Position numbers and translations under genes: made by a program. Shown one piece after another: positions 9,996 through 55,030 of a stretch of DNA of 64,000 nt. Source of the DNA: Tepidiformaceae bacterium (GTDB taxonomy: Bacteria; Chloroflexota; Dehalococcoidia; Tepidiformales; Tepidiformaceae); NCBI GenBank assembly GCA_965208185.1, contig OZ242321.1:192163-256162 (forward strand), given 5' to 3'. Under the pieces are notes generated by a model. The model saw only the letters and a list, made by a program, of their open reading frames with translations. It did no database searches and had not been told where the DNA came from. Within the stretch, counting starts at the first letter, position 1; each line of letters opens with the position of its first letter.

Positions 9996-10019
9996 GCGTC
10001 GCCGGCTAGCCGGCGACGC
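9996..10019. terminator. perfect 24-nt palindrome (10-bp stem) centred on the peroxiredoxin stop codon
   Basis: gcgtcgccggctagccggcgacgc was verified base by base. The stop codon (complement of 10006-10008) lies in the centre. Confidence 0.45.
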
Positions 10020-10476
10020 AAGCGAGCACCGGACCATAGTCCGGCAGCTCGACCACCGCCGGCGCCGTCTCGATGTGCGCCACGTTCCCGTCGCCGTCGA
10101 CCACCACCACCACGCGGTTCGCCATGTTCATTCCCGGCAGCAGGACGCCGTACGCCTCCGCCGTCGCCCCGATCGGGTTGAAGTCGCTCAGGACCGGGTA
10201 GCTCACGCCCGTCTGCTGCGCCCAGGCCGCCAGCGTCCAGGTGTTGTCCGTCGCGATCGCGACCGTGACCGCCCCCTCGAGGCTCCCCAGCTGCTCCTCG
10301 ATGATCGGGAGCTGGTTGCTGCACACCGGCGAGAACGCCGCCGGCACGAAGTTAATCACCACCGTCGACCCACGATGGTCGCTCAGCTTGAACGGACCCG
10401 GGTCGCCCATGGGGCTCTGGGGAAGTTCGAAATCCGGGGCCGCATCGCCCACCTTCAAAGTCGCCGTCTCAGACAT
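10006..10476 (-). CDS. peroxiredoxin (AhpC/TSA-redoxin family, Cys-type)
   Basis: MSETATLKVGDAAPDFELP ... VVINFVPAAFSPVCSNQLP, i.e. a PxxxSxxC active site. The ATG at 10476 is preferred over the GTG at 10488 because GAGG lies 6 nt upstream. Confidence 0.85.
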   Translation of the reverse strand: MSETATLKVGDAAPDFELPQSPMGDPGPFKLSDHRGSTVVINFVPAAFSPVCSNQLPIIEEQLGSLEGAVTVAIATDNTWTLAAWAQQTGVSYPVLSDFNPIGATAEAYGVLLPGMNMANRVVVVVDGDGNVAHIETAPAVVELPDYGPVLACVAG

Positions 10477-12048: not shown

Positions 12049-12459
12049 GTCGCGACGGGCTCGAGAGCGCGTCGCAGGATAGCACCAGCAAGTTCCTCGG
12101 TTGCGGCCCGTTGCGCCTCTATAGCCTTACGAACGCCTCTTGCGGCAGCTAGCTGACTCTCGATCTCGGCGACAATTTGCTGCTGCTCGTCGAGAGGGGG
12201 CAGTGGGACGGGCAGCTGGCACAAGAGACGTAGAGCAGGCTTCGTAGCCCGCTTGCGTAATGGTTCGCTCAGAGGAACCAATCTCGGGGCTATCCATCGC
12301 TCCAAGGTCAGTTGGCGTAATCCAGCAGATGTCCCCGCCCCAATACTCCGGAATGCCTGACTTTGGTGTCGAGCCGTTTACGATCTGACAGACGTCTCCG
12401 AGAGGGGCCCACCGCCAGCCAGCAGGCAAGGCGTCACCGGGGTTCACAGGTCGCTCCAC
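12045..12459 (-). pseudogene. hsdS: remnant of the Type I specificity subunit (internal deletion plus frameshift)
   Basis: ORF 12127..12459 starts as a normal TRD (LPAGWRWAPLGDVCQIVNGSTPKSGIPEYWGGDICWITPTDL...ERTITQAGYEA) and then becomes nonsense. The conserved C-terminal helix (LPVPLPPLDEQQQIVAEIESQLAAARGVRKAIEAQ) is in another frame (ORF 12045..12305). The whole locus is 415 nt, versus ~1.2 kb for an intact two-TRD hsdS. Confidence 0.8.
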
Positions 12460-14756
12460 TCTTCGTCGCTCGCAAGTACCTGGCGTCTCACATCCTGCAA
12501 TGCCGTACTCGGCTCGGGGCCGAGTGCGGCGATCCCACCCGCATCTCGGACCGAAGGGACACTAAAGAGTTCCCTGCTTTCGAGGGCACGAGTCCCCTCG
12601 TACGCGAACTGACGGGCGAGAGCCCGGAGCAGTAACTCGTCGCCTTCCAACCGGTCCTCGAAGCGGTCGGCTCGCTCCATGCGCTCTCGCGCCGTCTCGT
12701 CAAAGAAAGCGTGCGCCAGCACGTCGTACTCGTCGCATGCACGTAGACCAGACGCGGCCTGAAGGACAGCGACGCTGTTCGCCCCTTCGGGCAGTCCTTC
12801 AACGAGCTCGCGTCGCTCTTCTGGCTCAACCCACCGCTCTCGAAACTCTTCAAGGCTCGTGACCTCTGACAGCAAGCTGTCGGCGACGCGCTCGCGGTAG
12901 TCATCAAGCGTTACCCGCTCAAGATTGCCGTTGGCGCCCGGGACCATAATCGCCGCCCCCTCCGGCTCGATCCGTACCTCCACGCCGTCTGCCTCGAAAA
13001 TGCGGATGGGTTCCGGGTCGCGTTCCGTACCCCTTTGCTCCTCTTCGGACGGCGCCGGCTGGGCAAGGGAGGCGTCCATCAGCCGTGTAGCGTTGGTGTA
13101 GTCATACACGGTGAAGTGGCGCTTGCCGCTCTCCTCGTGAATACGTGTGCCCCTCCCCAGCATCTGGTGGAACGTAATCGGGGATTTGAGGTAGCGGAAG
13201 TAGACGATGTTCTGCAGCCGAGGCACGTCGACGCCTGTGCTGATCAAATCGACCGTGCAGGCCACGAAGGCTCGCGTGGCTGCACCCTTGAGGTCGGCCA
13301 GGTGGGCTCCTTCGCTCTTGCCTGTGCACTTGAAGGCGTAGGGATCCACCAGCTTCTCCTGCTCCTGTGCAGCCCACTCCGCGTAGAGGTTGTTCATGGC
13401 GGCGGCAACGCGGTCCGCATGGTCGTCACGGGCACAGAAGATCAGTGTCTTTTGTCGCGGCCCGCCGGTCTTGAGTAGCTGTTGGAACAGGTCTTCGCAC
13501 ATCGCATTGACGCGGTCAGGAAGCATGAGCCGCTCTTCAAGCGCTCCTGGAGCATAGACGGACGAGAGGTCCGCGACGTCGGCCAATTCGCCCGTCTTGG
13601 CATCACGAATCCTTGCGGCCTTGAGACGTTCGCGCTCGACGCCCTGGTCTCTCTCGCGCAGCCCTGCAGTGATGATATCGGAGGCCACAAGCCGCATCGC
13701 GGCCAGGAACCCATCATCCATGGCGCTCGCGATGGAGTACTCGTAAACCGGCTGGCCGAAGTAGGCGTGATTGTCGTTCTGGATGCGCTCGTCCTCTTCG
13801 GTCGCATACAAGAAAGTGCGAGGAGTGGCGGTGAGACCGATGTGCACGGCGTCGGGTTTGCGGTCGAGCACTGTCCGCCACCTACCCCACGCCGAGCGGT
13901 GGCACTCGTCGATGATGATGTGACTGAAGTAGTTCTCGGGGTAGTGCTGCGTGAGGAACGACGCATCGCCATCCTCCCCGTCGATTCCAAGCGTCTGGTA
14001 CGTCGCCACGATCACGCGTGCGTTCTTCTCGGGGTTGCGGGTGGTCGCTTTGGCCGCATCGGACTTGAACTCGTTCGACAGGGCACTCAGAGCTTGGGTT
14101 CGCAGCGTGTCACGGTCGCAGAGGAAGAGCGCCCGCGTCAGCTGTCTTGCATCGCGTAAGGCTCGCAGGAGGCTCACGGCGATGCGGGTCTTTCCGGTAC
14201 CAGTAGCCAATGAGAGCAGGGCACGCTTCTCACCGGCGGCGACCTTCTCCAGCACAGCCCTCACCGCGGCTCGCTGGTAGTAGCGGTCCCCCTCGCGAAC
14301 TGACCGGAGCAGCGGCGCTGCCCCCGCGGAATCAAGCTCAACCTTGCGGTGCTCGGCCCACCGATTGAGCAAGTCTTCCCACGTAGGGAATTGACCCAGG
14401 GGCGCTGGGCTGGTGGTTTTCCCGGTCTCAAAATCATGCTCCACAAACTGGTGCCCGTTCGTGGCAAAGACGAAGGGGACGTGGTGCTGGCGGCCGTAGC
14501 CCTTCGCCTGTTCCAGGCCCTCGCCAGGCGCATGGTTTTCCGCCTTAGCCTCAAGCAGGGCGATTGGGAGGGTTCTGTTCTCCACCGGCGCGTGCAGGAG
14601 GTAGTCCATCCGTTTGCGTCCATGCCGCCCGCCACTGCCCACGATCGCGATACGCCCCGGCGTCTGCTCACGCCTGATTAGGCTTTCAGGCCAACCGCGC
14701 CCATGGAGCGCCGGATCAATCAGCTTCGCCCGCGTATCGGCCTCGTTTAGGGGCAT
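12444..14756 (-). CDS. hsdR: Type I restriction enzyme, R (helicase-nuclease) subunit with EcoEI-R-like C-terminal domain
   Basis: Trimmed to the ATG at 14756 (MPLNEADTRAKLIDPAL). PD-(D/E)xK region MDYLL...LLEAKA, Walker A ATGTGKT, DEAH-like IIIDECHRS. The upstream 58 codons of the ORF are low-complexity. Confidence 0.9.
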   Translation of the reverse strand: MPLNEADTRAKLIDPALHGRGWPESLIRREQTPGRIAIVGSGGRHGRKRMDYLLHAPVENRTLPIALLEAKAENHAPGEGLEQAKGYGRQHHVPFVFATNGHQFVEHDFETGKTTSPAPLGQFPTWEDLLNRWAEHRKVELDSAGAAPLLRSVREGDRYYQRAAVRAVLEKVAAGEKRALLSLATGTGKTRIAVSLLRALRDARQLTRALFLCDRDTLRTQALSALSNEFKSDAAKATTRNPEKNARVIVATYQTLGIDGEDGDASFLTQHYPENYFSHIIIDECHRSAWGRWRTVLDRKPDAVHIGLTATPRTFLYATEEDERIQNDNHAYFGQPVYEYSIASAMDDGFLAAMRLVASDIITAGLRERDQGVERERLKAARIRDAKTGELADVADLSSVYAPGALEERLMLPDRVNAMCEDLFQQLLKTGGPRQKTLIFCARDDHADRVAAAMNNLYAEWAAQEQEKLVDPYAFKCTGKSEGAHLADLKGAATRAFVACTVDLISTGVDVPRLQNIVYFRYLKSPITFHQMLGRGTRIHEESGKRHFTVYDYTNATRLMDASLAQPAPSEEEQRGTERDPEPIRIFEADGVEVRIEPEGAAIMVPGANGNLERVTLDDYRERVADSLLSEVTSLEEFRERWVEPEERRELVEGLPEGANSVAVLQAASGLRACDEYDVLAHAFFDETARERMERADRFEDRLEGDELLLRALARQFAYEGTRALESRELFSVPSVRDAGGIAALGPEPSTALQDVRRQVLASDEEWSDL

Positions 14757-14765
14757 AGGCCGCGC

Positions 14766-14771
14766 AGTATA
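14766..14771 (-). promoter_or_regulatory. possible -10 box (TATACT) only 9 nt upstream of the hsdR ATG (near-leaderless transcript?)
   Basis: The reverse strand reads ggcTATACTgcgcggcctATG. No SD is visible. Confidence 0.25.
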
Positions 14772-14951
14772 GCCAACCCGTGCCACCCGCCCCTTCCCCC
14801 TCCCGGCCACCCGACCCCACCCTCCCGCCAAGGGCTGCCGCTGGGACTGGACTACGGTGACGAGTCGTAGCACGGACGGGCCGGGTGGGACCGCAGCGCC
14901 CAACGTCTGACCGGGACCGGGCCCCCACACGCCCGCGTATCATCCTCTCCC

Positions 14952-19851: not shown

Positions 19852-21414
19852 TCAGCCGTGGGCGTCCTTACCCCAGCCTCCCCCGCCGGGTGTATGCACC
19901 TCCACGCGTTCGCCGGCTGCTACCCGAAGCTGCTGCTGGCCGGCGAGGGGCTCGCGCTCCCCGTTCGCGCGGATCAGCGTGTTCTCGCCGTGCTCTGCCG
20001 CCTCTCCGCCCTGCGTCCCCGGTGGCCCGACGGCCCTGCGGTCGCCGATGAGGGAGACGTCCGCCTCCGTCAGGAATTCGATCTCGCGCACCACCCCGTC
20101 ACCCCCACGGTGCCGCCCCTCGCCCCCGCTCCCGTCGCGTAGCTCGAAACGCCGGACTCGTACGGGAAAGGCGTTCTCGATCGACTCGGCGGGGGTGTTG
20201 GCGGTGTTGGTCATGTGCGTCTGCACACCGCTTTCGCCATCTCCGTCGGGCCCCGCTCCGGCGCCGCCCGGAACCGTCTCGTAGTAGGCGAAGGGCTCGC
20301 CACTGGCTCGTACGCCACCAAACGTGAAGTTGCTCATCGTGCCGGCACTCGCCGCCGGGATTCGTCCCGGAAGCGCTTCCGCAAATGTCGCGAGCACGAC
20401 GTCGGTCACGCGCTGCGAGGTCTCGACATTGCCGGCGGAAACGGCGCGCTGGGGCCGGGCGTTGACGATCGAGCCCTCGGGAAGGATGACCTCAATGGGC
20501 CGGAAGACGCCCGCGTTGGAGGGAGCATCCGGGGGCAGGAGGCAGCGCACACAGTAGGCCACCGCCGATCGCGTCACGGCGGCCACGGCGTTGATCGAGG
20601 CGGCCTGCTCCGCCGCCGAGCCGCTGAAGTCAACCGTGACCTCCTCCCCGCGTAAGGAAACCCGGGCACGGATGGGGAGCAGCGTTCCGTACGCGCCCTC
20701 CATCACGTCCTCGGCCGCGTAATCGCCCTCGGGGACCTCGGCAAGGGCTGCCCGCGTGAGCCGCTCGGCGTAGTCGGTGAGAGCGGCCATCCAACGCGCG
20801 AGCTCGTCGCTTCCGTAGCGGGTGGCAAGCGCCTGGAGGCGAGCGGCGCCGGTACTGAGCGCCCCGAGCTGGGCGTCGAAGTCGCCGCGCCGCTCGGCGG
20901 GGGTGCGGACGTTCCGCAAGATCAGCGCGAAGAGCGCCTCGTTCAGCCGTCCCGCCTCGCGCAGCTTGAGCGGCGGGATGATGACGCCCTCCTGGTACAG
21001 CTCCGTGGCGACCGGCATCGAACCTGCCGACATACCTCCGATGTCGGCGTGGTGCGCGCGGTTCGCGACGAACCCGATGAGCTCCCCGCCGGCGAAGACG
21101 GGCGCCACCAGCGTCACGTCGGGGAGGTGGGTGCCACCGAGATATGGGTCGTTGACGATGGCCACGTCACCCTCGCTCCAGGGTGCGAGCGTAGACACCG
21201 CGGCGATCGACTCGGGCATGGCTCCCAGGTGGACGGGGATGTGAGCGGCCTGCGCCACCATCTCACCGTTTGCATCGAAGACGGCGCAGGAGAAGTCGCG
21301 GCGCTCGCGGATGTTGGGTGAGTGGCTTGTGCGCCACAGCGTTACGCCCATCTCCTCCGCAGCCGAAGCGAGGAGCGCGTTCCAGACGGCGAGGCGGGCG
21401 GGATCGTCGGTCAT
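19852..21414 (-). CDS. hydantoinase B/oxoprolinase family protein
   Basis: 520 aa with HyuB-type sequence (SPNIRERRDFSCAVFD...HIPVHLGAM). Its start overlaps the A-subunit stop. Confidence 0.9.
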   Translation of the reverse strand: MTDDPARLAVWNALLASAAEEMGVTLWRTSHSPNIRERRDFSCAVFDANGEMVAQAAHIPVHLGAMPESIAAVSTLAPWSEGDVAIVNDPYLGGTHLPDVTLVAPVFAGGELIGFVANRAHHADIGGMSAGSMPVATELYQEGVIIPPLKLREAGRLNEALFALILRNVRTPAERRGDFDAQLGALSTGAARLQALATRYGSDELARWMAALTDYAERLTRAALAEVPEGDYAAEDVMEGAYGTLLPIRARVSLRGEEVTVDFSGSAAEQAASINAVAAVTRSAVAYCVRCLLPPDAPSNAGVFRPIEVILPEGSIVNARPQRAVSAGNVETSQRVTDVVLATFAEALPGRIPAASAGTMSNFTFGGVRASGEPFAYYETVPGGAGAGPDGDGESGVQTHMTNTANTPAESIENAFPVRVRRFELRDGSGGEGRHRGGDGVVREIEFLTEADVSLIGDRRAVGPPGTQGGEAAEHGENTLIRANGEREPLAGQQQLRVAAGERVEVHTPGGGGWGKDAHG

Positions 21415-23354
21415 CGTGGGGTCACCAGGAGGTTGCCGCCGGCGTCGACGGTCGCCTGCCAGCCCTCCGGAATGAAGGTAGTTGCGTCCGGCTGGGTGAT
21501 AACCGCAGGCCCGCCGAGCGTCGAGCCGACGGCAAGCGCTGCTCGGGAGGTCTGGGCTGCGGCGACGCCGCCTGCCAGCGTGATCGGTTCGGACGCCCCG
21601 GAATCGTCAGTGGTCTCGGCGGCCAGGTCCGGAAGAGTACGCGTTGCCCCCTGCGCGCGGCAGCGCAACGCGACCAGCTCGACGCTCCGCTCGGGAGTCG
21701 AGAAGCCGTACTCGCGCTCGTGGGCGGCGTGGAAGGCGGTGACGATTGCGTCGGGAGCGGGCAGGGCGATGGCGACTCGCAGCTCGTGGGCCTGGCCCTG
21801 GTAGCGCACGTCCGCCGCCCAGGTCAGAGCCGTGAGCGTCCCGCCCGCGGCCTGCAAATCCGCCTTCGCCTGCCCCTCCAGCGCCCTGGCCGTGTTGTTG
21901 ATGGAGGTCGACGCTTCCGGTCCCAGGGTGATCAGCAGGCCCTGTCCCCGCTCGATGACCTCCGGGGCGGTGGCAATGCCGACGGCCGAGAGAACTCCGG
22001 CATGGCGGGGCACGAGCACCTGTCCGATGCCAAGCTCGGCCGCGAGCTCGCAGACGTGGAGCGGGCCGGCGCCGCCAAAGGCCACGAGCGTGAAGCCGGC
22101 GGGGTCGTACCCCCGTTCCAGGCTGACGCGCCGCAGGGCTCGCGCCATGGTCGCGTTCGCGACCTCGACCACCGCAGCCGCCGACGGTTCTGGCTCGCCG
22201 AGGGTGGCCAGGGCGTCGCTGGCGCGTTCGAGGTCGGGGATCACGCTGCCACCCAGCGGCGCGTCGGGACGGAGGCGTCCCAGCACGAGATTGGCGTCGG
22301 AGACGGTTGGGAGCTCGCCGCGTCCGTAGCAGGCGGGACCGGGATCGGCGCCTGCGCTCTGCGGCCCCACCGCCAGCGCCCCGCCCGGGTCGAGGCGGGC
22401 GATCGATCCGCCGCCGGCGCCCACCGTCACGATGTCGACCATGGGCGTGTGCACGGCGAGGCCGTCGACCTCGGTGGCGGAGCGGTAGCGCGGTTCGCCC
22501 GGGCAGAGCGAAACATCGGTGCTGGTGCCGCCCATATCGAACGTGATGACTTGCTCGTGGCCCGCCGCCTTCGCGACGGCAAGGGCGCCGAGCACGCCGC
22601 CGGCGGGTCCGCTCGTGACCATCGAGACAGGACGCTCACCGCTGGTCGCCGCGTCCGTGAGGCCGCCGGCCGAGTGCATCACGCGCAGCCCGGGGAAGCG
22701 CTCGTCGATGCCGTTCAGGTAGCGGCGGGCGGCTGGCTGGAGGAAGGCGTTGATGGCGGTTGTGCTGGCGCGCTCGTACTCGCGGTGCTCGGGAAGCGTC
22801 TCGTGGGAGGCGCTCACCGGGAAACCCGCTTTGCGCAAGGCGCCGGCGAGACGGGCCTCGTGTTCGGGTCGCAGATAGGCGAACAGCAGGCAGATCGCGA
22901 CCGCCTCCGCCCCCAACGCCCGCGCCTCCTGGACCACCCGCGCGACCTCGCCGTCGTCGAGGGGCATCACGACGTTGCCGCCGGCGCCGATCCGCTCCCG
23001 CACGGTGATGACGTCGCCACGTGCGACGACGTGCGGCGTTCGGCGTGGTTCGAGGTCGTAGAGGGCGGGGCGCTCCTGCCGCCGGATGACGAGCAGGTCG
23101 CGGAAGCCCTCGGTCGTGACGAGAACGGTGCGCGGTCCCCGACGCTCGAGGAGGGCGTTGGTGGCGACGGTGCTGCCGTGCGCCAGCCGCTGGTCGGTCA
23201 GGCCACCCGCGCCGGCCAGGACGGCTTCTTCCGGAGCGGAGGGCGTCGAGAGGCGCTTCCAGGCGCGGATGCCCGTCTCCTCGATGGCGACGAAATCGGT
23301 GAACGTGCCGCCCACGTCCACGCCGAGGACGCCTCCTTCCAGCGCCTCGGCCAC
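21411..23354 (-). CDS. hydantoinase A/oxoprolinase family protein
   Basis: 647 aa. N-terminal GVDVGGTFTDFV ATPase motif and a second DMGGTSTDV motif. Confidence 0.9.
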   Translation of the reverse strand: MAEALEGGVLGVDVGGTFTDFVAIEETGIRAWKRLSTPSAPEEAVLAGAGGLTDQRLAHGSTVATNALLERRGPRTVLVTTEGFRDLLVIRRQERPALYDLEPRRTPHVVARGDVITVRERIGAGGNVVMPLDDGEVARVVQEARALGAEAVAICLLFAYLRPEHEARLAGALRKAGFPVSASHETLPEHREYERASTTAINAFLQPAARRYLNGIDERFPGLRVMHSAGGLTDAATSGERPVSMVTSGPAGGVLGALAVAKAAGHEQVITFDMGGTSTDVSLCPGEPRYRSATEVDGLAVHTPMVDIVTVGAGGGSIARLDPGGALAVGPQSAGADPGPACYGRGELPTVSDANLVLGRLRPDAPLGGSVIPDLERASDALATLGEPEPSAAAVVEVANATMARALRRVSLERGYDPAGFTLVAFGGAGPLHVCELAAELGIGQVLVPRHAGVLSAVGIATAPEVIERGQGLLITLGPEASTSINNTARALEGQAKADLQAAGGTLTALTWAADVRYQGQAHELRVAIALPAPDAIVTAFHAAHEREYGFSTPERSVELVALRCRAQGATRTLPDLAAETTDDSGASEPITLAGGVAAAQTSRAALAVGSTLGGPAVITQPDATTFIPEGWQATVDAGGNLLVTPR

Positions 23355-23355
23355 C

Positions 23356-25227
23356 CTAGACGTACTCCTTGACCTTCTCCGCGAGTGAGCGGGTGTAGCC
23401 GGCCGTGCTCGCGATCTCCTCGACGCCCGCCTCGCCCACGGCCTTCAGCGAGCCGAACTTGCGCAGGAGGGCGCGCTTCCGTTTCGGCCCGACGCCGGGG
23501 ATGGAGTCGAGGACGCTGGCGGTGGCGGCCTTGCGGCGCACCTGGCGGTGGTAGGTGATGGCGAAGCGGTGGGCCTCGTCACGGACGCGCTGGACGAGGT
23601 AGAGGGCTTCGGAGCCGCGCGGCAGGATGATGGGCGCCTCCTCATCCGGGGCGAACAGCTCCTCGTGACGCTTCGCCAGCCCGAACGTCGGGATGTGGTA
23701 CACCCCGAGCTCGCGCATCACTTCGACGGCGGCGCTCAACTGGCCCTTGCCACCGTCGACGATGACGAGGTCGGGCAGGTCCCAGCCATCGTCGTCGGTT
23801 GTCTCGTCGTCGCCGCCTTCGAGGGTCTGCTGCTCGATGCGTTTGGCGGCTCGCTTGAAGCGGCGGCGCAGGACCTCCTGCATGGTGGCGAAGTCGTCGG
23901 GCCCCTCGACCGTCTTGATGCGGAACTTGCGGTACTGCCGAGGGGCCGGCTGTCCGTCGAGGAAGACGACCATGCTGGAGACGGGGCTGGCGCCCTGGGT
24001 GTTCGAGTTGTCGTAGCACTCGATGCGGTGAGGCGCCTCGGGCAGGGCCAGCTCCTCGCGCAGTTCGTCGAGGGCGGTGGCGGTCTTGGTCTGGTCGCTG
24101 AGCCAGCGCACCTTGAGGTTGTCCAGCGCCTCGGCCGCGTTCTCGCGGGCCATCTCCAGGAGCTGGCGCTTCTCGCCGCGCTGGGCCACGCGAATCTCGA
24201 CGTTGGCGCCACGCTTCTCCGTGAGCATCGCCTCCAGATCGGCCCGCCCTTCCGGCTCGATTGGCACGACGACCAGCTTCGGGATCGACTGCGCGCTCTC
24301 GTAGTACTGCTGCAGCAGGCTGCCGAGCACGGCCTCGTCGGACTCGCCGGTGACGCCTTCCATGACGAAGTGGTCACGACCGGTCATCTGGGTGCCGCGG
24401 ACGAAGAAGACCTGCACGCAGGCACGGTCGCCCTCGCGGGCGAGGCCGTAGACGTCGAGCTCCTCCTTCTTCGTGGTCGAGAGCATCTGGCGCTCGACGG
24501 TGCGCTCGATGGCCCGGATCTGGTCGCGGAGCATGGCGGCGCGCTCGTAGTCGAGGGACTCGGCGGCACCCTCCATCTGGTCCCCGAGTCGGTCGAGCAC
24601 ATCCGAGGCCTTCCCTTCGAGGAAAAGGATGATCTGGTCGATGACCTCCGTGTACTCCGCGGGCGTGCAGTAGGCCGTGCAGGGGGCGATGCAGCGCTTG
24701 ATGTAGTAGTCGAGGCAGGGGCGCGGATCCTTCCCCGTGATCTCCTTGGTGCAGGAGCGGTAGGGGAAGAGCTTCTTGAGCAGGTCGAGGGTGGCTCGCA
24801 CGGAGCCGGCGCTGGCGTACGGGCCGAAGTAGCGGGCCCCGTCCTTCTCGATACGGCGCGTGATGTAAACGCGCGGCCACGGGTTCTGCACGTCGATCTT
24901 GAGGTAGGGATAGCGCTTGTCGTCCTTCAGGCGGATGTTGAAGAAGGGCTGGTGCCGCTTGATCAGCGTCGCCTCAAGGATGAGCGCCTCGCCCGCGTTG
25001 GCGCAGACGATGTACTCGAAGTCCTCGATGTCGGCGCGCAAGGCGCGGGTCTTCGGCTCCAGGCTGCGGGGCGAGCCGAAGTAGGAGCGCACACGGTCCT
25101 TCAGGCGCGCTGCCTTGCCGACGTAGATGACCTCGCCCTTCTCGTTGCGCATGAGGTAGACGCCGGGCCTCGCGGGGAGCGCCTCGATCTGCTTCTTGAG
25201 CCGGTCGGGAAGGGCGGTTGCGACCAC
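23356..25227 (-). CDS. uvrC: excinuclease ABC subunit C
   Basis: GIY-YIG module (PGVYLMRNEKGEVIYVGKA), UVR domain, and C-terminal (HhH)2 (IPGVGPKRKRALLRKFGSLKAV). Confidence 0.95.
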   Translation of the reverse strand: MVATALPDRLKKQIEALPARPGVYLMRNEKGEVIYVGKAARLKDRVRSYFGSPRSLEPKTRALRADIEDFEYIVCANAGEALILEATLIKRHQPFFNIRLKDDKRYPYLKIDVQNPWPRVYITRRIEKDGARYFGPYASAGSVRATLDLLKKLFPYRSCTKEITGKDPRPCLDYYIKRCIAPCTAYCTPAEYTEVIDQIILFLEGKASDVLDRLGDQMEGAAESLDYERAAMLRDQIRAIERTVERQMLSTTKKEELDVYGLAREGDRACVQVFFVRGTQMTGRDHFVMEGVTGESDEAVLGSLLQQYYESAQSIPKLVVVPIEPEGRADLEAMLTEKRGANVEIRVAQRGEKRQLLEMARENAAEALDNLKVRWLSDQTKTATALDELREELALPEAPHRIECYDNSNTQGASPVSSMVVFLDGQPAPRQYRKFRIKTVEGPDDFATMQEVLRRRFKRAAKRIEQQTLEGGDDETTDDDGWDLPDLVIVDGGKGQLSAAVEVMRELGVYHIPTFGLAKRHEELFAPDEEAPIILPRGSEALYLVQRVRDEAHRFAITYHRQVRRKAATASVLDSIPGVGPKRKRALLRKFGSLKAVGEAGVEEIASTAGYTRSLAEKVKEYV

Positions 25228-25248: not shown

Positions 25249-26019
25249 TCAGGGGGACAGCTTCCCGCTCAGATCCCGAAGCTCCCGCAGCCTGCGCCGC
25301 GCGTAGTCGGACTCCAGTTGCCAGCAGACCGCGACTTCCCAGGCGACCGATGCCAGGCGGGCGCGGTCGAAGTCTGCGGATGGCAGACCAGCGCTCTCGG
25401 CATCCGGCAGGGCGCCGAGGTCGAGGAGCGGGGAGTCGACGCGGGCTTCATCCCAGTCCAGCAGGCTAACCCGGTCGCCGTCGATGCGGATGTTGGTGGG
25501 GGAGGGGTCGCCGTGAATCACCGTCGGCTCCCGCTCGGGCAGTTCCCTCCAGGCGGAGCGGCACAGGGAAGCGTCCTCGGGCGGGAGGAGGGACATGTCG
25601 ACGTCGCCACCACTGTCGGTCGGGATCAATTCGTGACATGTGCGGAAGCCGGGGCGCTGGGGACCCGCCGGCATCAGGCTGTGCAGCCGCCGCAGTTCAT
25701 CGCCGACGAGCTCTGCGTCTCGTTTGCCCGCGGGCTCCCTCCCCTCGATGAAGGACAGCACGACCAGCCCACCAACGCGGCGCTCGCCCGACGCAGTCGC
25801 GATCGGGAGGGGGACTATGAAGCCCTCGTCGTGCAGGGCGCCGAGCAGGTCGAGTTCCCAGTCGAGAGCCTCGCCGCTGCGGTCGTTCTGGCGGGCGACG
25901 CAGCGCTCACCATGCAGGCGGATGGTCCATACGCGGTTGCGCAGGCCGCTCACTTCCGCGTCGACCTCGACGGCGCCCCAGGGTTCGAGGGCTTTCTGGA
26001 GATCGGCATGAGTTGTCAT
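25249..26019 (-). CDS. aminoglycoside/choline-kinase-like phosphotransferase (APH family)
   Basis: Catalytic loop VIHGDPSPTNI and LLDWDEA. The ATG at 26019 is preferred (GGAG 7 nt upstream) over the TTG at 26037. Confidence 0.75.
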   Translation of the reverse strand: MTTHADLQKALEPWGAVEVDAEVSGLRNRVWTIRLHGERCVARQNDRSGEALDWELDLLGALHDEGFIVPLPIATASGERRVGGLVVLSFIEGREPAGKRDAELVGDELRRLHSLMPAGPQRPGFRTCHELIPTDSGGDVDMSLLPPEDASLCRSAWRELPEREPTVIHGDPSPTNIRIDGDRVSLLDWDEARVDSPLLDLGALPDAESAGLPSADFDRARLASVAWEVAVCWQLESDYARRRLRELRDLSGKLSP

Positions 26020-26085
26020 GGGGGAGTCTCCGTGCAATCAGCGTACGGCGTGTGCGCTCGCGAGCCAGCTAACGCTCCCCGCCGG

Positions 26086-26091
26086 TACAAT
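26086..26091 (+). promoter_or_regulatory. possible -10 box (TACAAT) 7 nt upstream of the crotonase GTG start
   Basis: ccggTACAATcgccgccGTG. This would give a leaderless or near-leaderless mRNA. Confidence 0.25.
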
Positions 26092-26098
26092 CGCCGCC

Positions 26099-26905
26099 GT
26101 GGACTACGAACACATCCTCTACGACGTGGCGGACGGAATCGCGACGATCACGCTGAACCGCCCCGAACGCCTGAACGCTTTCGACAACCTGATGCTGAGC
26201 GAGTGGCGGGACGCCATCGAGCGTTCGGATGCGGATGGCGACGTGCGCGTCATCATCCTGACCGGCGCCGGGCGCGGGTTCTGCAGCGGCATGGATGTCG
26301 CCCACGAAACCGCGGGCGAGGGCGTGTTGCGCACGGAGGAGAGCGTCGCGGAGCGGCGGCACAGCCTCCGCAACAGCGTCCACCACATCCCCCGGGCGCT
26401 GGTGCAGCTCGAGAAGCCGTACATCGCCGCCGTCAACGGCGCGGCCGTGGGCGCGGGGATGGACATGGCCTCGATGGCGGACATCCGCTTCGCCAGCGAG
26501 CGGGCGCGCTTCGGCATGGGCTATGTGCGCATGGGCCTCATTCCCGGCGACGGCGGCGCCTTCACGCTCCCCCGGATCGTGGGCACGGCCAAGGCGCTGG
26601 AGCTGATCTGGAGCGGCGAGCTGATTGACGCCCAGGAAGCGCTGCGCCTCGGCTACGTGAGCGAGGTCTACCCGCCCGAGGAGCTGCAGGAGCGCACGCG
26701 CGAGTTCGCTCAGAAGATCGCGCGGGGGCCGGCGACGGCCATCCAGCTCGCGAAGAAGCTCGTCTACCGTTCCGCCAACCTGACCTTCGACGAACACCTC
26801 GATTTCGCCCAGATGGCGATGACCCTCGCGCAGTCCACCGAGGACGCGAAGGAGGGCCCCCTCGCCTTCACCGAGAAACGCGAGCCCAACTTCAAGGGCT
26901 ACTAG
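26099..26905 (+). CDS. enoyl-CoA hydratase/isomerase (crotonase) family protein
   Basis: [12 protein letters not shown] and the oxyanion-hole motif [11 protein letters not shown]. Start assigned to the in-frame GTG at 26099 (VDYEHILYD), giving 268 aa. The upstream part of ORF 26018.. would collide with the divergent gene. Confidence 0.85.
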
Positions 26906-26921
26906 CGACAAGGAGAACAAC

Positions 26922-27383
26922 ATGCCTCCAGCACCTGGTGACCGCGCCCCGGCGTTCACCCTGATGAACAAGGACCGGGAACAGGTCACGCTCGACTCGT
27001 TCCCCGGCAAGAACATCGTCCTGGCGTTCTATCCGCTCGCCTTCACCGGTGGGTGAACGTCCGAGATGATCGGCTTCCGCACGCACACGGATGCGTTCGC
27101 GGAGGCCAACGCCCAGGTTCTGGGCGTGAGCGTCGACTCCTTCGCCGCCGTCGGCGAGTTCCAGGAGAAGCTCGGGTTGGAGTTCCCCCTCGTCTCGGAC
27201 TTCCCGAAGAACCAGGCGGGACGCGATTACGACATCTTCAACGAGGACTTCGGTTTCCATAACCGCGCGACCTTCGTGATCGACAGCGAAGGTGTTGTGC
27301 GGGATGTCTACCTTGAGCCGCGCGACTTCGAATCGCACGCTCCGCACGCGCTCGAAGCACTGCGCGAACTGAACGAGGGCTAG
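26922..27383 (+). CDS. peroxiredoxin (AhpE/BCP-like) with in-frame TGA (27054-27056) at the peroxidatic-Cys position; predicted selenocysteine-containing Prx
   Basis: AGGAG lies 6 nt upstream of ATG 26922. The frame reads [61 protein letters not shown]..., continuing in frame into track ORF 27066..27383. The motif PxxxTxxC becomes P38-LAF-T42-GG-U45. Total is 153 codons. Confidence 0.75.
27072..27107 (+). promoter_or_regulatory. candidate bacterial SECIS stem-loop, starting 15 nt downstream of the in-frame UGA
   Basis: Checked base by base. Lower stem 27072-27080/27099-27107 is 9 bp (one G-U). Upper stem 27081-27085/27092-27096 is 5 bp. There is a 2-nt bulge (27097-27098) and an apical loop CACGGA (27086-27091). 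Confidence 0.55.
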
Positions 27384-27389
27384 GTTCCC

Positions 27390-28562
27390 GTGCTCTTTCG
27401 CGACTCGCCCGAGCAGGCCGCTTTCCGTGCGGAGATCCGCGACTTCCTCGACGCGGAGCTGCCCGCGGAGATGTGGAACATGCGCAGCGATCGCGAGGAG
27501 ATGGACGAGGAAGAGGCGGCCTTCGCGAAGCAGTTCCGGGCGCAGCTCGCCGACCGCGGCTGGCTGACCCTGGGCTGGCCGAAGGAGCATGGCGGAGGCG
27601 GCGCGGACTTCGTCACGCAGACCGTCTACATGGAGGAGATGAGCTCGCGCGGCGCTCCCGGAGCCTACGACCAGGGCGTCTGGCTGGCCGGCCCGGCGCT
27701 CATGCACGAAGGCACAAAGGAGCAGCAGGATCGGTGGCTCCCCGGCCTGCGCGAGGGCACCTCCCGCTTCTGCCAGCTCTTTTCCGAGCCGGGCGCGGGT
27801 TCGGACCTCGCCTCGCTGCAGTCGAGCGCCATCCGCGACGGCGACGAGTACGTCCTGAACGGCCAGAAGATCTGGACGAGCTGGGCGACGGGCGCGAAGT
27901 GGGGCATCCTGCTGGCGCGCACGGACCCGGACGCGCCCAAGCACCGCGGCATCAGCTACTTCATCCTCGACATCGAGTCGCCGGGGGTGAGCGTTCGACC
28001 GCTGGTGAACATGATGGACGCGGCCCACTTCAACGAGGTCTTCTTCGACGACGTGCGCATCCCCATCGACAACCGCATCGGCGAGGAGAACCGGGGCTGG
28101 TACGTGGCGGCGGCGACGCTCGATCAGGAGCGCAGCTCGATCAACCGCATCGTCATGACGCGCTCGACGTTGGAGGCGCTCGTCGACTACGTGCGCGAGC
28201 GCGACGGCGGGTCGACGTCGCACCACATCCGGCACGAGCTGGCCTCGCGGGCTATCGACTTCGAGTTGGGGCGCTGGCTCTGCTACCGGGTCGCGCAGAT
28301 GCAGAGCGAAGGGGAGAACCCGAACTACGAGGCCTCGATCTCGAAGGTGTTCGGCACGGAGCTTCAGCGGCAGATGGGACAGACGGGGATGCGCGTGCTC
28401 GGCATGGAGGGACAACTCGAGCCGGGCAGCCCGTACGTCCCGCTGCAGGGGCGCGTCGAGCGCTGGGCGCTGGCGGGCCCGAGCTACACGGTGGCCGGCG
28501 GCACGAGCGAGGTGAACCGCAACATCATCGCGACGCGGGGCCTGGGACTGCCGCGCTCATAG
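27390..28562 (+). CDS. acyl-CoA dehydrogenase family protein
   Basis: 390 aa with ACAD N/M/C domain sequence (GWLTLGWPKEHGGGG ... FSEPGAGSDLASL ... GGTSEVNRNIIA). GTG start. Confidence 0.9.
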   Translation: MLFRDSPEQAAFRAEIRDFLDAELPAEMWNMRSDREEMDEEEAAFAKQFRAQLADRGWLTLGWPKEHGGGGADFVTQTVYMEEMSSRGAPGAYDQGVWLAGPALMHEGTKEQQDRWLPGLREGTSRFCQLFSEPGAGSDLASLQSSAIRDGDEYVLNGQKIWTSWATGAKWGILLARTDPDAPKHRGISYFILDIESPGVSVRPLVNMMDAAHFNEVFFDDVRIPIDNRIGEENRGWYVAAATLDQERSSINRIVMTRSTLEALVDYVRERDGGSTSHHIRHELASRAIDFELGRWLCYRVAQMQSEGENPNYEASISKVFGTELQRQMGQTGMRVLGMEGQLEPGSPYVPLQGRVERWALAGPSYTVAGGTSEVNRNIIATRGLGLPRS

Positions 28563-30109: not shown

Positions 30110-30475
30110 ATGGGCAGCAACGAATTTGCCACCGACGGCACCATCGACTCGTTCGAAAACCAACACCCCGGGCGCGACTACGAGATCCGTTTCGACGCGC
30201 CGGAGTTCACGAGCGTGTGTCCGATGACGGGCCAGCCGGACTTCGGGACAATCACGCTGATCTACGTGCCCGAGGCTCGCTGTATCGAGCTGCGCAGCTT
30301 CAAGTTCTACCTGCAGTCGTTCCGCGAGCGGGGCATCTTCTACGAGGACGTGGTGAACGTGATCCTCGACGACGTGGTGGCTGCGATCGCGCCGCGACGG
30401 GCAACCGTTATCGGTGACTTCCACGCACGCGGGGGGATCACCGCGCGGGTGACCGCCACGCACCTGCAGGCGTAG
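30110..30475 (+). CDS. queF: NADPH-dependent 7-cyano-7-deazaguanine (preQ0) reductase, unimodular type
   Basis: C-terminal 121 aa of ORF 29285..30475, starting at ATG 30110. Catalytic Cys context FTSVCPMTGQPDFG and QueF motif ELRSFKFYLQSF. Confidence 0.9.
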   Translation: MGSNEFATDGTIDSFENQHPGRDYEIRFDAPEFTSVCPMTGQPDFGTITLIYVPEARCIELRSFKFYLQSFRERGIFYEDVVNVILDDVVAAIAPRRATVIGDFHARGGITARVTATHLQA

Positions 30476-30488
30476 CATCGGTGCGCTC

Positions 30489-31265
30489 ATGGCGGTGAAA
30501 GGGAATCCCGGCGGCTTTCCCCAGCGAAAGTTGAAGGACACGCCGACCGTCACGCCCGGGCAGATGCGCGAGATCCAGCGCGCCGCCCAGGAAGTCTTTC
30601 ACTTCGACATCCTGCAGGCGGTCGAAAACGCGGGCCTGGCGACGGCACAGCTCGTGCTGGCGATGCTGGGCGGGAGCGCGAAGGGTCAGCGGGTGGTGGT
30701 GCTGGCAGGGGGTGGGCACGTGGGGGCGGCGGGACTGTCGGCGGTACGGCACCTCGACAACTGGGGAGTGCAGGCAGAGCCGCTGCTCGGTGAGGTCGAG
30801 AGTCAGATGAGCTTCGTGACGCGCCGGCACCTGCACATCCTGGCGGAGTCGGGCATCGCGGAGCCGCACGACAGCGATACGAGCGAGCACACCGCCGAGG
30901 ATCATCTGCAGCGCGCCGCTCTTGTCGTGGATGCGCTGGTGGGCTACGGCCTTGAGGGTGCGCCGACGGGGCTTGCCGCGGCCGTCACGCAGATCGCGGC
31001 AGCGGCGCGCCGGCCGATCCTGGCGCTGGACATCCCAACCGGCGTGAACGCGGAGACAGGTGCTGTGAGCAGTCCGGCGGTGACCGCGGCCACAACGCTC
31101 GTGTTCGACCTCCCGAAGACGGGGCAGGTGCTGCCCGTCTGCCAGAAGCACGTGGGCGAGCTGTACGCAGCGGACCTCGGCGTTCCGCGCGCCGCCTACG
31201 AGCGCCTCGGTATCAGCACGCGGGGGGTCTTCGCCGAGGGCCACATCGTGCGGCTGCGGCGGTAA
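30489..31265 (+). CDS. nnrE: NAD(P)H-hydrate epimerase (YjeF N-terminal domain protein)
   Basis: VVVLAGGGHVGAAGLSAVRHL, VDALVGYGL and LDIPTGVN motifs of the YjeF_N family. Confidence 0.8.
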   Translation: MAVKGNPGGFPQRKLKDTPTVTPGQMREIQRAAQEVFHFDILQAVENAGLATAQLVLAMLGGSAKGQRVVVLAGGGHVGAAGLSAVRHLDNWGVQAEPLLGEVESQMSFVTRRHLHILAESGIAEPHDSDTSEHTAEDHLQRAALVVDALVGYGLEGAPTGLAAAVTQIAAAARRPILALDIPTGVNAETGAVSSPAVTAATTLVFDLPKTGQVLPVCQKHVGELYAADLGVPRAAYERLGISTRGVFAEGHIVRLRR

Positions 31266-31268
31266 CGG

Positions 31269-31835
31269 CTAGAACCTGCGCGAGTCCCAGAGCACGTCGC
31301 CGTGGCCGCCGAGCTGGTTCTGGAGGCGGGAGGCGACGAAGAGCAGGTCGCTGAGGCGGTTCAGGTAGGAGGAGACGTACTCGCCCACCTGCTCCTCGCG
31401 GCTGAGGGCGAAGGTGAGGCGCTCGGCGCGGCGGCAGATAGTGCGCGCGAGGTGGAGGTGTGCGGCTGTGGGGTCGCCGCCGGGAAGGACGAAGCTCGTA
31501 AGGGGCTCCAGGTCGTCGTTCCAGTCATCGATCCAGGATTCGAGCTGGTCGACGTGACGGCTCTCGACGTGGGGGCCGGTAGGCTCCTCACCAGGTTCGC
31601 GGGGCGTGGCCAACTCGGCCCCGAGGTTGAAGAGCACCTGCTGGATGACGCCGAACGGCTCGGCGAGTGGAGCCTCCAGCCCGGCAGCGACGGCGATTCC
31701 GATGGCGCTGTTGAGCTCGTCTACGGTGCCGTAGGCCTCAATGCGGAGGCTCTCCTTGGGGACGCGCTGGCCTCCGGCAAGGGCGGTCGTGCCGTCGTCC
31801 CCGGCGCGGGTGTAGACGCGGTTGATGCGAACCAT
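31269..31835 (-). CDS. ATP:cob(I)alamin adenosyltransferase, PduO type
   Basis: N-terminus RVYTRAGDDGTTAL and EAYGTVDELNSAIG are PduO-family signatures. Confidence 0.9.
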   Translation of the reverse strand: MVRINRVYTRAGDDGTTALAGGQRVPKESLRIEAYGTVDELNSAIGIAVAAGLEAPLAEPFGVIQQVLFNLGAELATPREPGEEPTGPHVESRHVDQLESWIDDWNDDLEPLTSFVLPGGDPTAAHLHLARTICRRAERLTFALSREEQVGEYVSSYLNRLSDLLFVASRLQNQLGGHGDVLWDSRRF

Positions 31836-31907
31836 GAGTCAAGCATGCCGGAGGGCGTGGCCGCGGGCCAGCCGCCCCCCTCTCGCCGGCGCGCCCGGAC
31901 GCGGAGA

Positions 31908-32159
31908 ATGCGGGCGGAGGGTTTCGTGCCAGAGACGATCCGTTGCGGGCGTTGCCTCATCCCCATCGACGGTGAACCCCACATGATGTCGACGCGCCGC
32001 TACTGTTGCGCGAGTTGCTCCGTGGGCTCCGTGTGCGAGCACCAGGGAGTGCGCCGGGGCTCGGCCGTCCGCCGTTACGACGGCAACTTCGACCGGTTCC
32101 GCGAGGTCGCCCGACACTCGGGGCCGTATGAGCGGGAGCGCACCTCCCGCTCGGGTTGA
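31908..32159 (+). CDS. small Cys-rich protein (SmtA/TRASH-like zinc-ribbon pattern), hypothetical
   Basis: 83 aa from ATG 31908 inside ORF 31302..32159, with strong GC3 bias. The pattern CGRCLIPIDG-x10-YCCASCSVGSVC resembles the CxxC...YYCSxxC metal-binding fold. Start uncertain. Confidence 0.45.
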   Translation: MRAEGFVPETIRCGRCLIPIDGEPHMMSTRRYCCASCSVGSVCEHQGVRRGSAVRRYDGNFDRFREVARHSGPYERERTSRSG

Positions 32160-32190
32160 CCTAGCGGGCGACCCTCTCCACCATCGCGGC

Positions 32191-32496
32191 ATGGCTCTTT
32201 ACGAATACCAGTGTGCCGAGTGCGGCGAGCGCTTCGAAAAGCGCATGCCGATGGGCGACGCCCTGCAGCTCGCGCCGTGCCCGGCGTGCGGCGCGCAGGC
32301 AAGGAAGGTCATCGGGAACTTCGCGGTCGTGGGGCGAGCGGAGGCTGGGGTGGGCGACGGCCCGGCGCCCTGGGAGGACGGCGGTGACGGGGAAGGCGAG
32401 GGCGATGCCGAGGCCGCGGGCGCGGATGACCTCACACACCACGGCCACAGCCACGGCCCCGGTGGGCACTCGCACGGGCACCCCCATCCCCACTAG
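32191..32496 (+). CDS. FmdB-family zinc-ribbon protein with C-terminal His-rich tail
   Basis: MALYEYQCAECGERFE...CPACG from ATG 32191. The tail is HHGHSHGPGGHSHGHPHPH. Confidence 0.8.
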   Translation: MALYEYQCAECGERFEKRMPMGDALQLAPCPACGAQARKVIGNFAVVGRAEAGVGDGPAPWEDGGDGEGEGDAEAAGADDLTHHGHSHGPGGHSHGHPHPH

Positions 32497-32539
32497 GGCA
32501 GCCGGAAGACGGTGCTTGTAAGTCCTGGAACAATGATAT

Positions 32540-32932
32540 ATGGTTGTCCATATGAAGAAGACGACGATCAACATTGAGGATGCCATCATGGAACGGCTGA
32601 AGGAAGAAGCCGCTCGCCGCAAGACGACCATGACTGCGCTCATCGAGGCCGGGATCCGGCGAATACTCGCGGAAGGCGAGACGCCCGCGCCGGTAGGCGG
32701 CGAGCTACCGCCGCTGCCCATCTACGACATGGGCGAACCCCTTGTGGACGTGGCCGATCGTGACGCCCTCTATGAAGTGCTCGACCGGGAACGGGATGAG
32801 CGTCTCTATGGGGCTGGGCAGAACAGTGCCGGGAGCAGCGGTCTCCGCACCCTGAAAGCGAGGACCGCAGCCGAGGATTTGGCGCCCTACGATGCAGATG
32901 GAGAGGCGCGCGAGCGGACGGGCCACGACTAG
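32540..32932 (+). CDS. vapB: type II antitoxin, VapB-like (ribbon-helix-helix) with extended C-terminus
   Basis: MKKTTINIEDAIMERLKEEAARRKTTMTALIEAGIRRIL...VDVADRDALYEVLD. An alternative start lies at 32552. The stop abuts the vapC GTG. Confidence 0.75.
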   Translation: MVVHMKKTTINIEDAIMERLKEEAARRKTTMTALIEAGIRRILAEGETPAPVGGELPPLPIYDMGEPLVDVADRDALYEVLDRERDERLYGAGQNSAGSSGLRTLKARTAAEDLAPYDADGEARERTGHD

Positions 32933-45214: not shown

Positions 45215-45321
45215 GGCTTCCCCCTTGCGTGCCGCGACGGGGCCGTTCGCGGCGGCGTCAGTCTACCGGTCGGGCGGTCGCGCTTGCCGCAAGCGCAGGG
45301 TGGCGCGCACAATTCGGCGCG

Positions 45322-54990: not shown

Positions 54991-55030
54991 GCCGCGGGTC
55001 TTCGCGAGAGATTTCACAAACGGCTGAGGC

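Follow-up and report, generated by a model that had tools for sequence, protein, structure and literature searches.

A predicted selenocysteine peroxiredoxin of the AhpE type, missed by open reading frame calling, in Tepidiformaceae and other Dehalococcoidia

Background

An in-frame TGA at a catalytic codon raises the question of whether the gene is broken or whether the codon is translated and, if so, as which amino acid. Here we consider this question for a peroxiredoxin gene at positions 26922-27383 of a 64,000-nucleotide stretch of DNA from a Tepidiformaceae bacterium (Chloroflexota; Dehalococcoidia; contig OZ242321.1), the whole of which is referred to below as the window. An initial annotation, made from the letters of the window, had proposed that this locus encodes a selenocysteine (Sec) peroxiredoxin missed by open reading frame (ORF) calling, a proposal that alignment, conservation and downstream RNA structure support. 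Our analysis indicates that the locus is very probably an intact gene for a Sec-containing AhpE-type one-'Cys' peroxiredoxin, in which UGA 27054 is decoded as Sec.

Peroxiredoxins (PF00578) with a TxxU motif are an established selenoprotein family, the prototype of which is PrxU of Eubacterium acidaminophilum (Sohling et al. 2001; PMC13188914, PMC1794560). The Sec form has been validated experimentally in that organism (PMC13188914), and the peroxiredoxin family is inferred to have switched from Cys to Sec at least five times independently (PMC1794560). The consensus for the bacterial selenocysteine insertion sequence (SECIS), the bSECIS, is a loop of 3-9 nt on an upper stem of 4-16 bp, with a G in the first two loop positions, 16-37 nt between the UGA and the loop, and a minimum free energy (MFE) of -7.5 kcal/mol or lower (PMC13188914). 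A minority of selenoprotein genes fail this model (PMC13188914); in BSepDB, 12.6% of bacterial selenoprotein genes are without a canonical SECIS (PMC13326102).

Results

A single peroxiredoxin domain spans the TGA

The ORF lister gave only 27066-27383 (105 aa) at this locus, as the initial annotation had reported. That annotation had also pointed to an upstream ATG with AGGAG 6 nt 5' of it as opening the same frame, and direct reading of the coordinates agrees: the start codon is at 26922-26924, the ribosome-binding site reads AAGGAG, the sole in-frame TGA is at 27054-27056 and the terminal TAG is at 27381-27383. The conceptual product is the predicted 153 aa, with P38, T42, U45 and R115. When residue 45 is given as Cys, the product matches profile positions 1-123 of 124 of Pfam AhpC-TSA (PF00578; E 3.4e-36, 124.3 bits, cut-off 26), and thus one AhpC/TSA domain spans the TGA. 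R115 is invariant in the alignment with full-length homologues. The product has no Cys whatsoever and would therefore be a one-Sec enzyme.

The best match in PDB is AhpE of Mycobacterium tuberculosis (1XXU, E 3e-22), in which the residue aligned with the TGA is the peroxidatic Cys45. Among the best seven matches six are M. tuberculosis AhpE (E ~3e-22) and one is an AhpC/TSA entry (E 2e-21), followed by BCP/PrxQ at E 4e-19; on this best-hit similarity we tentatively assign the predicted product to the AhpE type. The alignment with Cys and Sec peroxiredoxins that had been suggested as a check places the TGA on the peroxidatic Cys, as claimed for the active-site motif, in both the full-length homologues and AhpE.

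The catalytic TGA is conserved across a clade

In a search of proteins predicted from public genomes and metagenomes we considered the best 120 clusters. Full-length relatives make up 16 of these (152-158 aa, 55-69% identity), and all ten that were aligned carry Cys where the window gene has TGA. Another 103 are truncations of ~105 aa that begin at a conserved Met four codons past the TGA, and one more is partial. The truncated clusters are named 'redoxin domain-containing protein', 'peroxiredoxin' or 'mycoredoxin-dependent peroxiredoxin'. The expectation that such a gene would be annotated as truncated was thus correct, and the truncation is a systematic mis-annotation across the whole clade.

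The DNA of related loci (L-numbered below) gives the codon itself. A scan of species-dereplicated genomes assigns the window to Tepidiformaceae; the nearest locus, on a metagenome-assembled genome (MAG) chromosome of 3.15 Mb, is 97% identical to the window peroxiredoxin at the protein level. The catalytic codon is TGA in 27 Dehalococcoidia species genomes (L001-L010, L012-L027 and L036; 45-97% identity) and in one Acidobacteriota genome (L056), making 28 species genomes other than that of the window. A Cys codon is present instead in one close relative (L011, TGC) and in 34 more distant homologues (TGC or TGT). The initial annotation had named relatives with TGC or TGT and no hairpin, or further disruptions, as evidence that would speak against a Sec gene; we find that in 27 of the 28 close Dehalococcoidia orthologues the TGA is retained within an intact frame and followed by structured RNA, and that the TGA-bearing orthologues have no other disruption.

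Within the close group, pairwise differences at the three codon positions number 84/28/281 on the 5' side of the TGA and 227/167/604 on the 3' side. The start codon and ribosome-binding site are conserved in most orthologues. The pattern upstream indicates that the 44 codons before the TGA are translated and under purifying selection. Taken together, the codon-position pattern on both sides and the conserved start and ribosome-binding site exclude a pseudogene or an assembly error.

In a rough neighbour-joining tree all Dehalococcoidia TGA forms fall into one clade, with the TGC-bearing L011 nested within it, which implies a secondary Sec-to-Cys replacement. L011 (position 10133; Dehalococcoidia MAG JAXLWZ010000014.1) is the sole TGC form inside the Sec clade; in it Arg replaces the Glu codon that pairs with a Phe codon, the first of the two downstream hairpins described below is lost (z +0.5) and the second is partly kept. 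From its sequence L011 looks like a natural Sec-to-Cys reversion. The Acidobacteriota gene (L056, position 10121; MAG CAZHQK010000049.1) is a peroxiredoxin of the same family with the catalytic TGA and both hairpins, the loop of the first being UGGC; it could be the result of horizontal transfer or of an independent Cys-to-Sec event.

Two adjacent hairpins follow the TGA

Each gene was compared with 300 synonymous recodings of its own peptide under local codon usage, with 48 nt used for the first hairpin (hairpin 1, 27072-27107). In the window the MFE structure of 67 nt, taken from the UGA on, contains hairpin 1 (-23.9 kcal/mol, 6-nt loop), which has a z score of -2.2 against dinucleotide shuffles and of -3.1 against synonymous recodings (0/300). 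Over all genes the region has a mean MFE of -20.5 kcal/mol and a mean z of -2.2 in the TGA genes (n=28), whereas the values in the Cys genes (n=35) are -7.5 kcal/mol and 0.0. A hairpin is found in the same place in 29/29 TGA genes, with 11-16 bp, -14 to -25 kcal/mol and the loop 27-31 nt past the UGA; in L013-L015 (3/29) the MFE loop is 10 nt.

Hairpin 1 is conserved in structure and variable in sequence. Its inner stem shifts in sequence and register by subclade (ACGCA/UGCGU, ACCG/CGGU, GGAGCUU/GAGUUCC), several pairs have changed on both sides, and the fraction of paired cells, 71-73%, falls to 37-57% when the structure is slid. The loops share no nucleotide and several are without any G (AUUA, CCAAC, CUUCA, CCCA). 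The initial annotation had described this hairpin with 14 bp and a GG in the apical loop as its key feature; the MFE fold bears out the base pairs and the spacing, while the GG is not conserved in orthologues.

The second hairpin (hairpin 2, 27109-27127) had been missed by that annotation, which took the SECIS to be one hairpin. In the window it has a 3-nt loop, 8 bp and -14.0 kcal/mol, with the loop 60 nt from the UGA. It encodes the peptide (N/D/G)AQVLG(V/I), which is common to the Sec and Cys forms. The core GCC-CAG-GTN-CTG-GG(C/T) is present in 25 of 28 Sec genes; of the exceptions, L010 and L022 encode the Leu by TTG, so that a G-U pair is preserved, and in L026 the codon is GTG (Val). 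For the same AQVLG peptide the mean z against synonymous recodings is -2.3 in the Sec forms (all 28) and -0.25 in the Cys forms. High-GC Cys forms break the palindrome, although a near-perfect palindrome is also found in two Dehalococcoidia Cys forms (L043 and L071). Synonymous identity per codon, taken over same-residue pairs, reaches 0.67 in hairpin 1 and 0.77 in hairpin 2, against 0.52 upstream and 0.55 in the remainder of the gene. At the stem codons Ala+19 and Gln+20 identity is 100% over 378 pairs, whereas the loop codon Val+21 is at background (0.40). A compensatory change from C-G to U-A occurs at RNAalifold columns 57/73 of hairpin 2 in seven sequences.

Joint folding of all 28 sequences with RNAalifold returned hairpin 2 alone, since the subclades differ in the register of the hairpin 1 inner stem; hairpin 1 was therefore assessed by explicit structures, per-sequence folds and subgroup consensus folds. 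Both hairpins are more stable than recodings in the Sec forms and not in the Cys forms, so the downstream structure goes beyond coding constraint. The fold and the covariation in orthologues, which had been proposed as checks, thus yield a structure that is conserved, specific to TGA genes and marked by compensatory pairs. With a second, nearly invariant hairpin that has a G-first loop, the SECIS is probably not simply hairpin 1.

Further pairing was seen around the two hairpins. In subclades B, B2, C and D, nt 5-17 past the UGA pair with sequence 3' of hairpin 2 to form an outer helix and a Y-shaped element. The corresponding segments in the window are ~27058-27070 and ~27132-27152 (V-D-S-F codons); the helix is weak in the window's group and clearer in L008-L027 and L036. 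A small hairpin at 27043-27058 (UUCACC-GGUG-GGUGAA), in which the Phe-Thr codons pair with the UGA and the next base, is found in the window's close relatives only, where the second Gly codon is GGG, against GGC elsewhere.

TGA elsewhere in the window

TGA is usually the commonest stop codon in such high-GC genomes. Here genome GC is 67.6%, and in a crude set of 54 window genes the stops are ~36 TAG, 15 TGA and 2 TAA. We found no other Pfam-supported gene interrupted by TGA in the window, and some genes end at TGA with the terminal domain complete, for example that for cytidylate kinase. Since TGA ends ~15 of 54 genes and interrupts no other Pfam-supported gene, reassignment of the genetic code is not the explanation for the peroxiredoxin TGA.

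The other in-frame TGA candidates in the window were all rejected. The one at 25251 (minus strand) is the boundary between APH and UvrC genes, the one at 55025 (plus strand) is a non-coding stretch followed by NuoA, and the one at 45887 (minus strand) is antisense to a gene on the plus strand. Among the related loci, a MoaD/ThiS-like junction (...AVAGG*) in L023 and L024 is an ordinary stop.

A second selenoprotein candidate in related genomes

The flanks of the related loci were scanned for TGA junctions at which either side bears the codon signature of a sense strand, both sides being required, using cut-offs on third- and first-position GC (GC3/GC1). The scan recovered the peroxiredoxin TGA in 25 of 29 TGA-bearing loci, the other four falling under the GC3/GC1 cut-offs. 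It also returned a second candidate in six group-C genomes (L020-L024 and L027), 7-9 kb from the predicted Sec peroxiredoxin. This is a two-domain rhodanese/thiosulfate sulfurtransferase (Pfam Rhodanese, E 2e-32; PDB 1UAR, E 1e-45) with the motif TTY-U-QGGIRAAH, in which the TGA falls on the catalytic Cys. The RNA downstream, AUCCGUGC-GGC-GCACGGAU, has the form of a canonical bSECIS, with an 8-bp stem and a 3-nt G-first loop 17 nt past the UGA. The rhodanese gene and its bSECIS, both predicted from sequence, are a separate line of evidence that Sec is decoded in Dehalococcoidia genomes with the peroxiredoxin. By analogy, the rhodanese element shows a SECIS of the Dehalococcoidia class that would resemble hairpin 2, not hairpin 1.

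The initial annotation had considered Sec unusual for a genome of this kind, a view now outdated: MAGs of Dehalococcoidia rank among the known bacteria richest in selenoproteins, with reports of 46-49 (PMC13326102). Selenoproteins also occur in Chloroflexi (PMC1794560). These published surveys make Sec machinery likely in the lineage, and we predict it for Tepidiformaceae.

Genomic context

The peroxiredoxin gene lies between two genes of beta-oxidation (Table 1). The order enoyl-CoA hydratase, peroxiredoxin, acyl-CoA dehydrogenase is kept in L001-L007, and in L010 and L017 an acyl-CoA dehydrogenase gene is within ~900 bp downstream of the peroxiredoxin.

Table 1. Features of the peroxiredoxin locus in the window, and the rhodanese candidate in related loci
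Feature	Position	Strand	Basis and remarks
Enoyl-CoA hydratase, upstream neighbour	26018..26905	+	Pfam ECH_1, E 2.8e-61; stop 16 nt before the peroxiredoxin ATG
Ribosome-binding site AAGGAG	26910..26915	+	Read directly, 6 nt 5' of the ATG; GGAG-type motif in most orthologues
Full-length peroxiredoxin coding sequence, 153 codons + TAG, U45	26922..27383	+	Pfam AhpC-TSA; AhpE-type (by best hit), predicted 1-Sec, zero Cys
In-frame UGA, predicted Sec codon at the peroxidatic position	27054..27056	+	Alignment with Cys of homologues and AhpE Cys45
Hairpin 1, 14 bp (9 + 5, 2-nt 3' bulge), loop CACGGA 29 nt past the UGA	27072..27107	+	MFE fold
Hairpin 2, ACGCCCAG-GUU-CUGGGCGU, 8 bp, 3-nt loop G-U-N, nearly invariant	27109..27127	+	RNAalifold consensus
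Acyl-CoA dehydrogenase, downstream neighbour	27390..28562	+	Pfam Acyl-CoA_dh N, M, C; start 6 nt after the peroxiredoxin stop
Rhodanese candidate	L020:3248-4183, TGA 3385	-	Codon-signature scan, Pfam, PDB
Rhodanese TGA, other loci	L021:2528, L022:912, L023:2574, L024:2629, L027:3354		Codon-signature scan

A Cys-type peroxiredoxin paralogue had been noted in the window at 10006-10476, and it is indeed present, on the minus strand, with the motif PAAFSPVCSNQ. It is Tpx/BCP-like, scores below every NCBIfam cut-off and adjoins type I restriction-modification genes (10537-14939, minus strand; a HsdM-like methylase and a ResIII/helicase subunit). Window ORFs of 141, 725, 276, 297 and 186 aa have no Pfam match at E <= 1e-5. 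Sizeable ORFs are located in 20819-23372 (plus strand), 30438-32721 and 45229-46206 (plus strand), and a further one, of 325 aa, is on the plus strand.

Discussion

Which element recruits SelB

Given two adjacent hairpins, the question is which of them would direct Sec insertion. The arrangement that we tentatively place first, while holding it short of probable, is a composite SECIS, in which hairpin 2 is the SelB site and hairpin 1 a folded spacer of 36 nt. With the spacer left uncounted, the distance from the UGA to the loop of hairpin 2 would come to an effective 24 nt (15 + 1 + 8 nt). Hairpin 2 may be a candidate SelB-binding element of the same kind as the rhodanese SECIS and the apical loop of the Escherichia coli fdhF SECIS, both of which it resembles: the former also has an 8-bp stem and a 3-nt G-first loop, and the fdhF loop reads A-GGUC-U. 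Should the composite SECIS be true, bSECIS models built on a single hairpin with 16-37 nt spacing would systematically miss such an architecture.

It is also possible, and in our estimate comes second, that the SECIS is hairpin 1 alone, with hairpin 2 being accessory or an incidental result of the AQVLG peptide and codon bias. The position of the hairpin 1 loop in all 29 genes is within the 16-37 nt range, and its fold is stable throughout. Hairpin 1 is also the element that is lost in the Sec-to-Cys revertant L011, in which part of hairpin 2 stays, and two Dehalococcoidia Cys forms carry the near-perfect hairpin 2 palindrome; the share of BSepDB genes without a canonical SECIS points the same way. 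Hairpin 1 loops, however, have no nucleotide in common and several have no G, whereas known SelB recognition depends on the loop G/U, and a merely incidental hairpin 2 sits poorly with the invariance of its synonymous stem sites and with its likeness to the fdhF and rhodanese elements. The remaining probability goes to both hairpins acting jointly or to another arrangement.

Is the UGA read as selenocysteine?

Sec insertion at UGA 27054 is what we infer from the integrity of the gene, the TGA at the catalytic codon, its conservation across the clade and the RNA structure that is specific to TGA forms. Several results weigh against it. No tRNA-Sec was found by ARAGORN in the window or in 28 loci, no sel genes by Pfam annotation of ~50 window ORFs, and no match to the E. 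coli proteins SelA, SelB and SelD by tblastn in the window or in 1.4 Mb of DNA from 80 loci, the genomes being of 2.6-3.1 Mb. A scan of the window at Rfam gathering thresholds gave no match. Neither hairpin of the window gene combines the bSECIS loop G with 16-37 nt spacing: hairpin 1 agrees with the consensus in size, spacing and energy, but 28 of 29 genes have no G in loop positions 1-2, and hairpin 2 has the bSECIS-type loop G at a spacing of 60 nt, outside the range. Finally, the statistics that set Sec forms against Cys forms, among them the Mann-Whitney p of 2e-10 for hairpin 1 z, come from sequences that are not phylogenetically independent.

A rival reading is that the UGA is decoded without selenium: a suppressor or near-cognate tRNA, or a reassigned code, would give Cys, Trp or Gly, and the hairpins would simply boost read-through. 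The poor fit of either hairpin to the bSECIS consensus and the failure to find Sec machinery in the window and the 1.4 Mb from related loci favour it, and the dominance of TAG among the window's stops might hint at odd handling of UGA. We nevertheless consider it very unlikely. The stop usage described above shows that the code is not reassigned in the 64 kb, residue 45 needs a chalcogen nucleophile, and the enzyme would not work with Trp or Gly there. For a Cys product TGC would be the simpler codon, and in L011 just such a replacement is paired with the loss of hairpin 1. In addition, a second gene in related genomes has a TGA at its catalytic Cys together with a canonical SECIS, and the class is documented as selenoprotein-rich (PMC13326102).

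That a nonsense mutation or sequencing error has killed a Cys-peroxiredoxin, so that the 105-aa remnant or nothing is made, may seem to be favoured by the gene callers, which yield just the 105-aa ORF at this locus, as in 103 of the best 120 clusters, and by the searches for Sec machinery, but we regard it as negligible, since 28 further species genomes, each assembled independently, have the same TGA at identities as low as 45%, without further disruptions, with purifying selection on the 44 upstream codons (84/28/281), a conserved start and ribosome-binding site and downstream RNA structure selected in TGA forms only, and since the remnant would be without the entire active-site motif.

Proposed mechanism and significance

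On the Sec reading, translation would begin at ATG 26922, and the two adjacent mRNA hairpins just 3' of UGA 27054 would direct SelB and Sec-tRNA(Sec) to recode it as Sec. The selenol(ate) of U45, in a PxxxTxxU...R site formed with P38, T42 and R115, would attack the hydroperoxide and be converted to a selenenic acid, from which an external thiol reductant would regenerate U45; an external reductant is invoked because a resolving Cys is missing from the protein. For AhpE, efficient reaction with fatty-acid hydroperoxides has been reported (PMC6400530). Together with the position of the gene in a beta-oxidation operon, this preference makes lipid or acyl hydroperoxides plausible substrates, and the conserved slot between beta-oxidation genes suggests a dedicated role in their removal.

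Our results would add to the Sec peroxiredoxin family an AhpE-type, cysteine-free '1-Sec' clade that is widespread in Dehalococcoidia, including a lineage with respiratory complex I in the window. They also expose an annotation error, in that 103 of the best 120 clusters are without the active site and the curated selenoprotein models of NCBI do not cover the clade. The clade further offers a natural test case for the distance between UGA and SelB loop, with a canonical-looking loop 60 nt away behind a conserved hairpin.

Comparison with known systems

The gene has the defining features of the Sec peroxiredoxin TxxU family, which is itself already known: the shared AhpC/TSA fold, Sec in place of the peroxidatic Cys in PxxxTxxU (here as predicted), structured RNA in frame and abundant Cys homologues. 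It is neither a PrxU equivalog (NCBIfam NF040737, 58.6 bits against a cut-off of 270) nor a Prx-SUH equivalog (NF045827, 33.7 bits against 298). Unlike PrxU it probably belongs to a short, ~153-aa AhpE-like branch, and it has no Cys, and its host is a member of the Chloroflexota with complex I in the window rather than a strictly anaerobic Firmicute.

AhpE of M. tuberculosis (Rv2238c; PDB 1XXU, 1XVW, 4X0X) has the same 153 aa, catalytic residue 45 and one-Cys architecture, and the active sites are alike (FPLAFTGIC in AhpE, YPLAFTGGU in the window product). AhpE, however, uses Cys, which is recycled by mycoredoxin-1 and mycothiol (PMC6400530), while the window product has a predicted Sec. In a literature search we found no description of a Sec-containing AhpE, and nothing joining Tepidiforma with selenocysteine.

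The rhodanese candidate likewise has a catalogued counterpart, the rhodanese-related sulfurtransferases (PF00581) with UxxG (PMC13188914), and in the six group-C genomes the TGA is also at the catalytic Cys. It differs from the peroxiredoxin in belonging to another protein family, in having a single canonical hairpin and in being absent from the window.

The SECIS of E. coli fdhF (UGA + CACGGCCCAUCGGUUGCA-GGUC-UGCACC..., a sequence checked against >5,400 E. coli genomes) is, like the hairpins described here, in the coding region directly 3' of the UGA. Its apical part, GCA-GGUC-UGC, is similar to CCCA-GGU(N)C-UGGG of hairpin 2, including the GGU. The fdhF loop is 18 nt from the UGA, whereas that of hairpin 2 is 60 nt away with a stable 36-nt hairpin in between, and in some subclades of the peroxiredoxin, unlike in the fdhF SECIS, the outer helix would complete a Y-shaped three-way junction.

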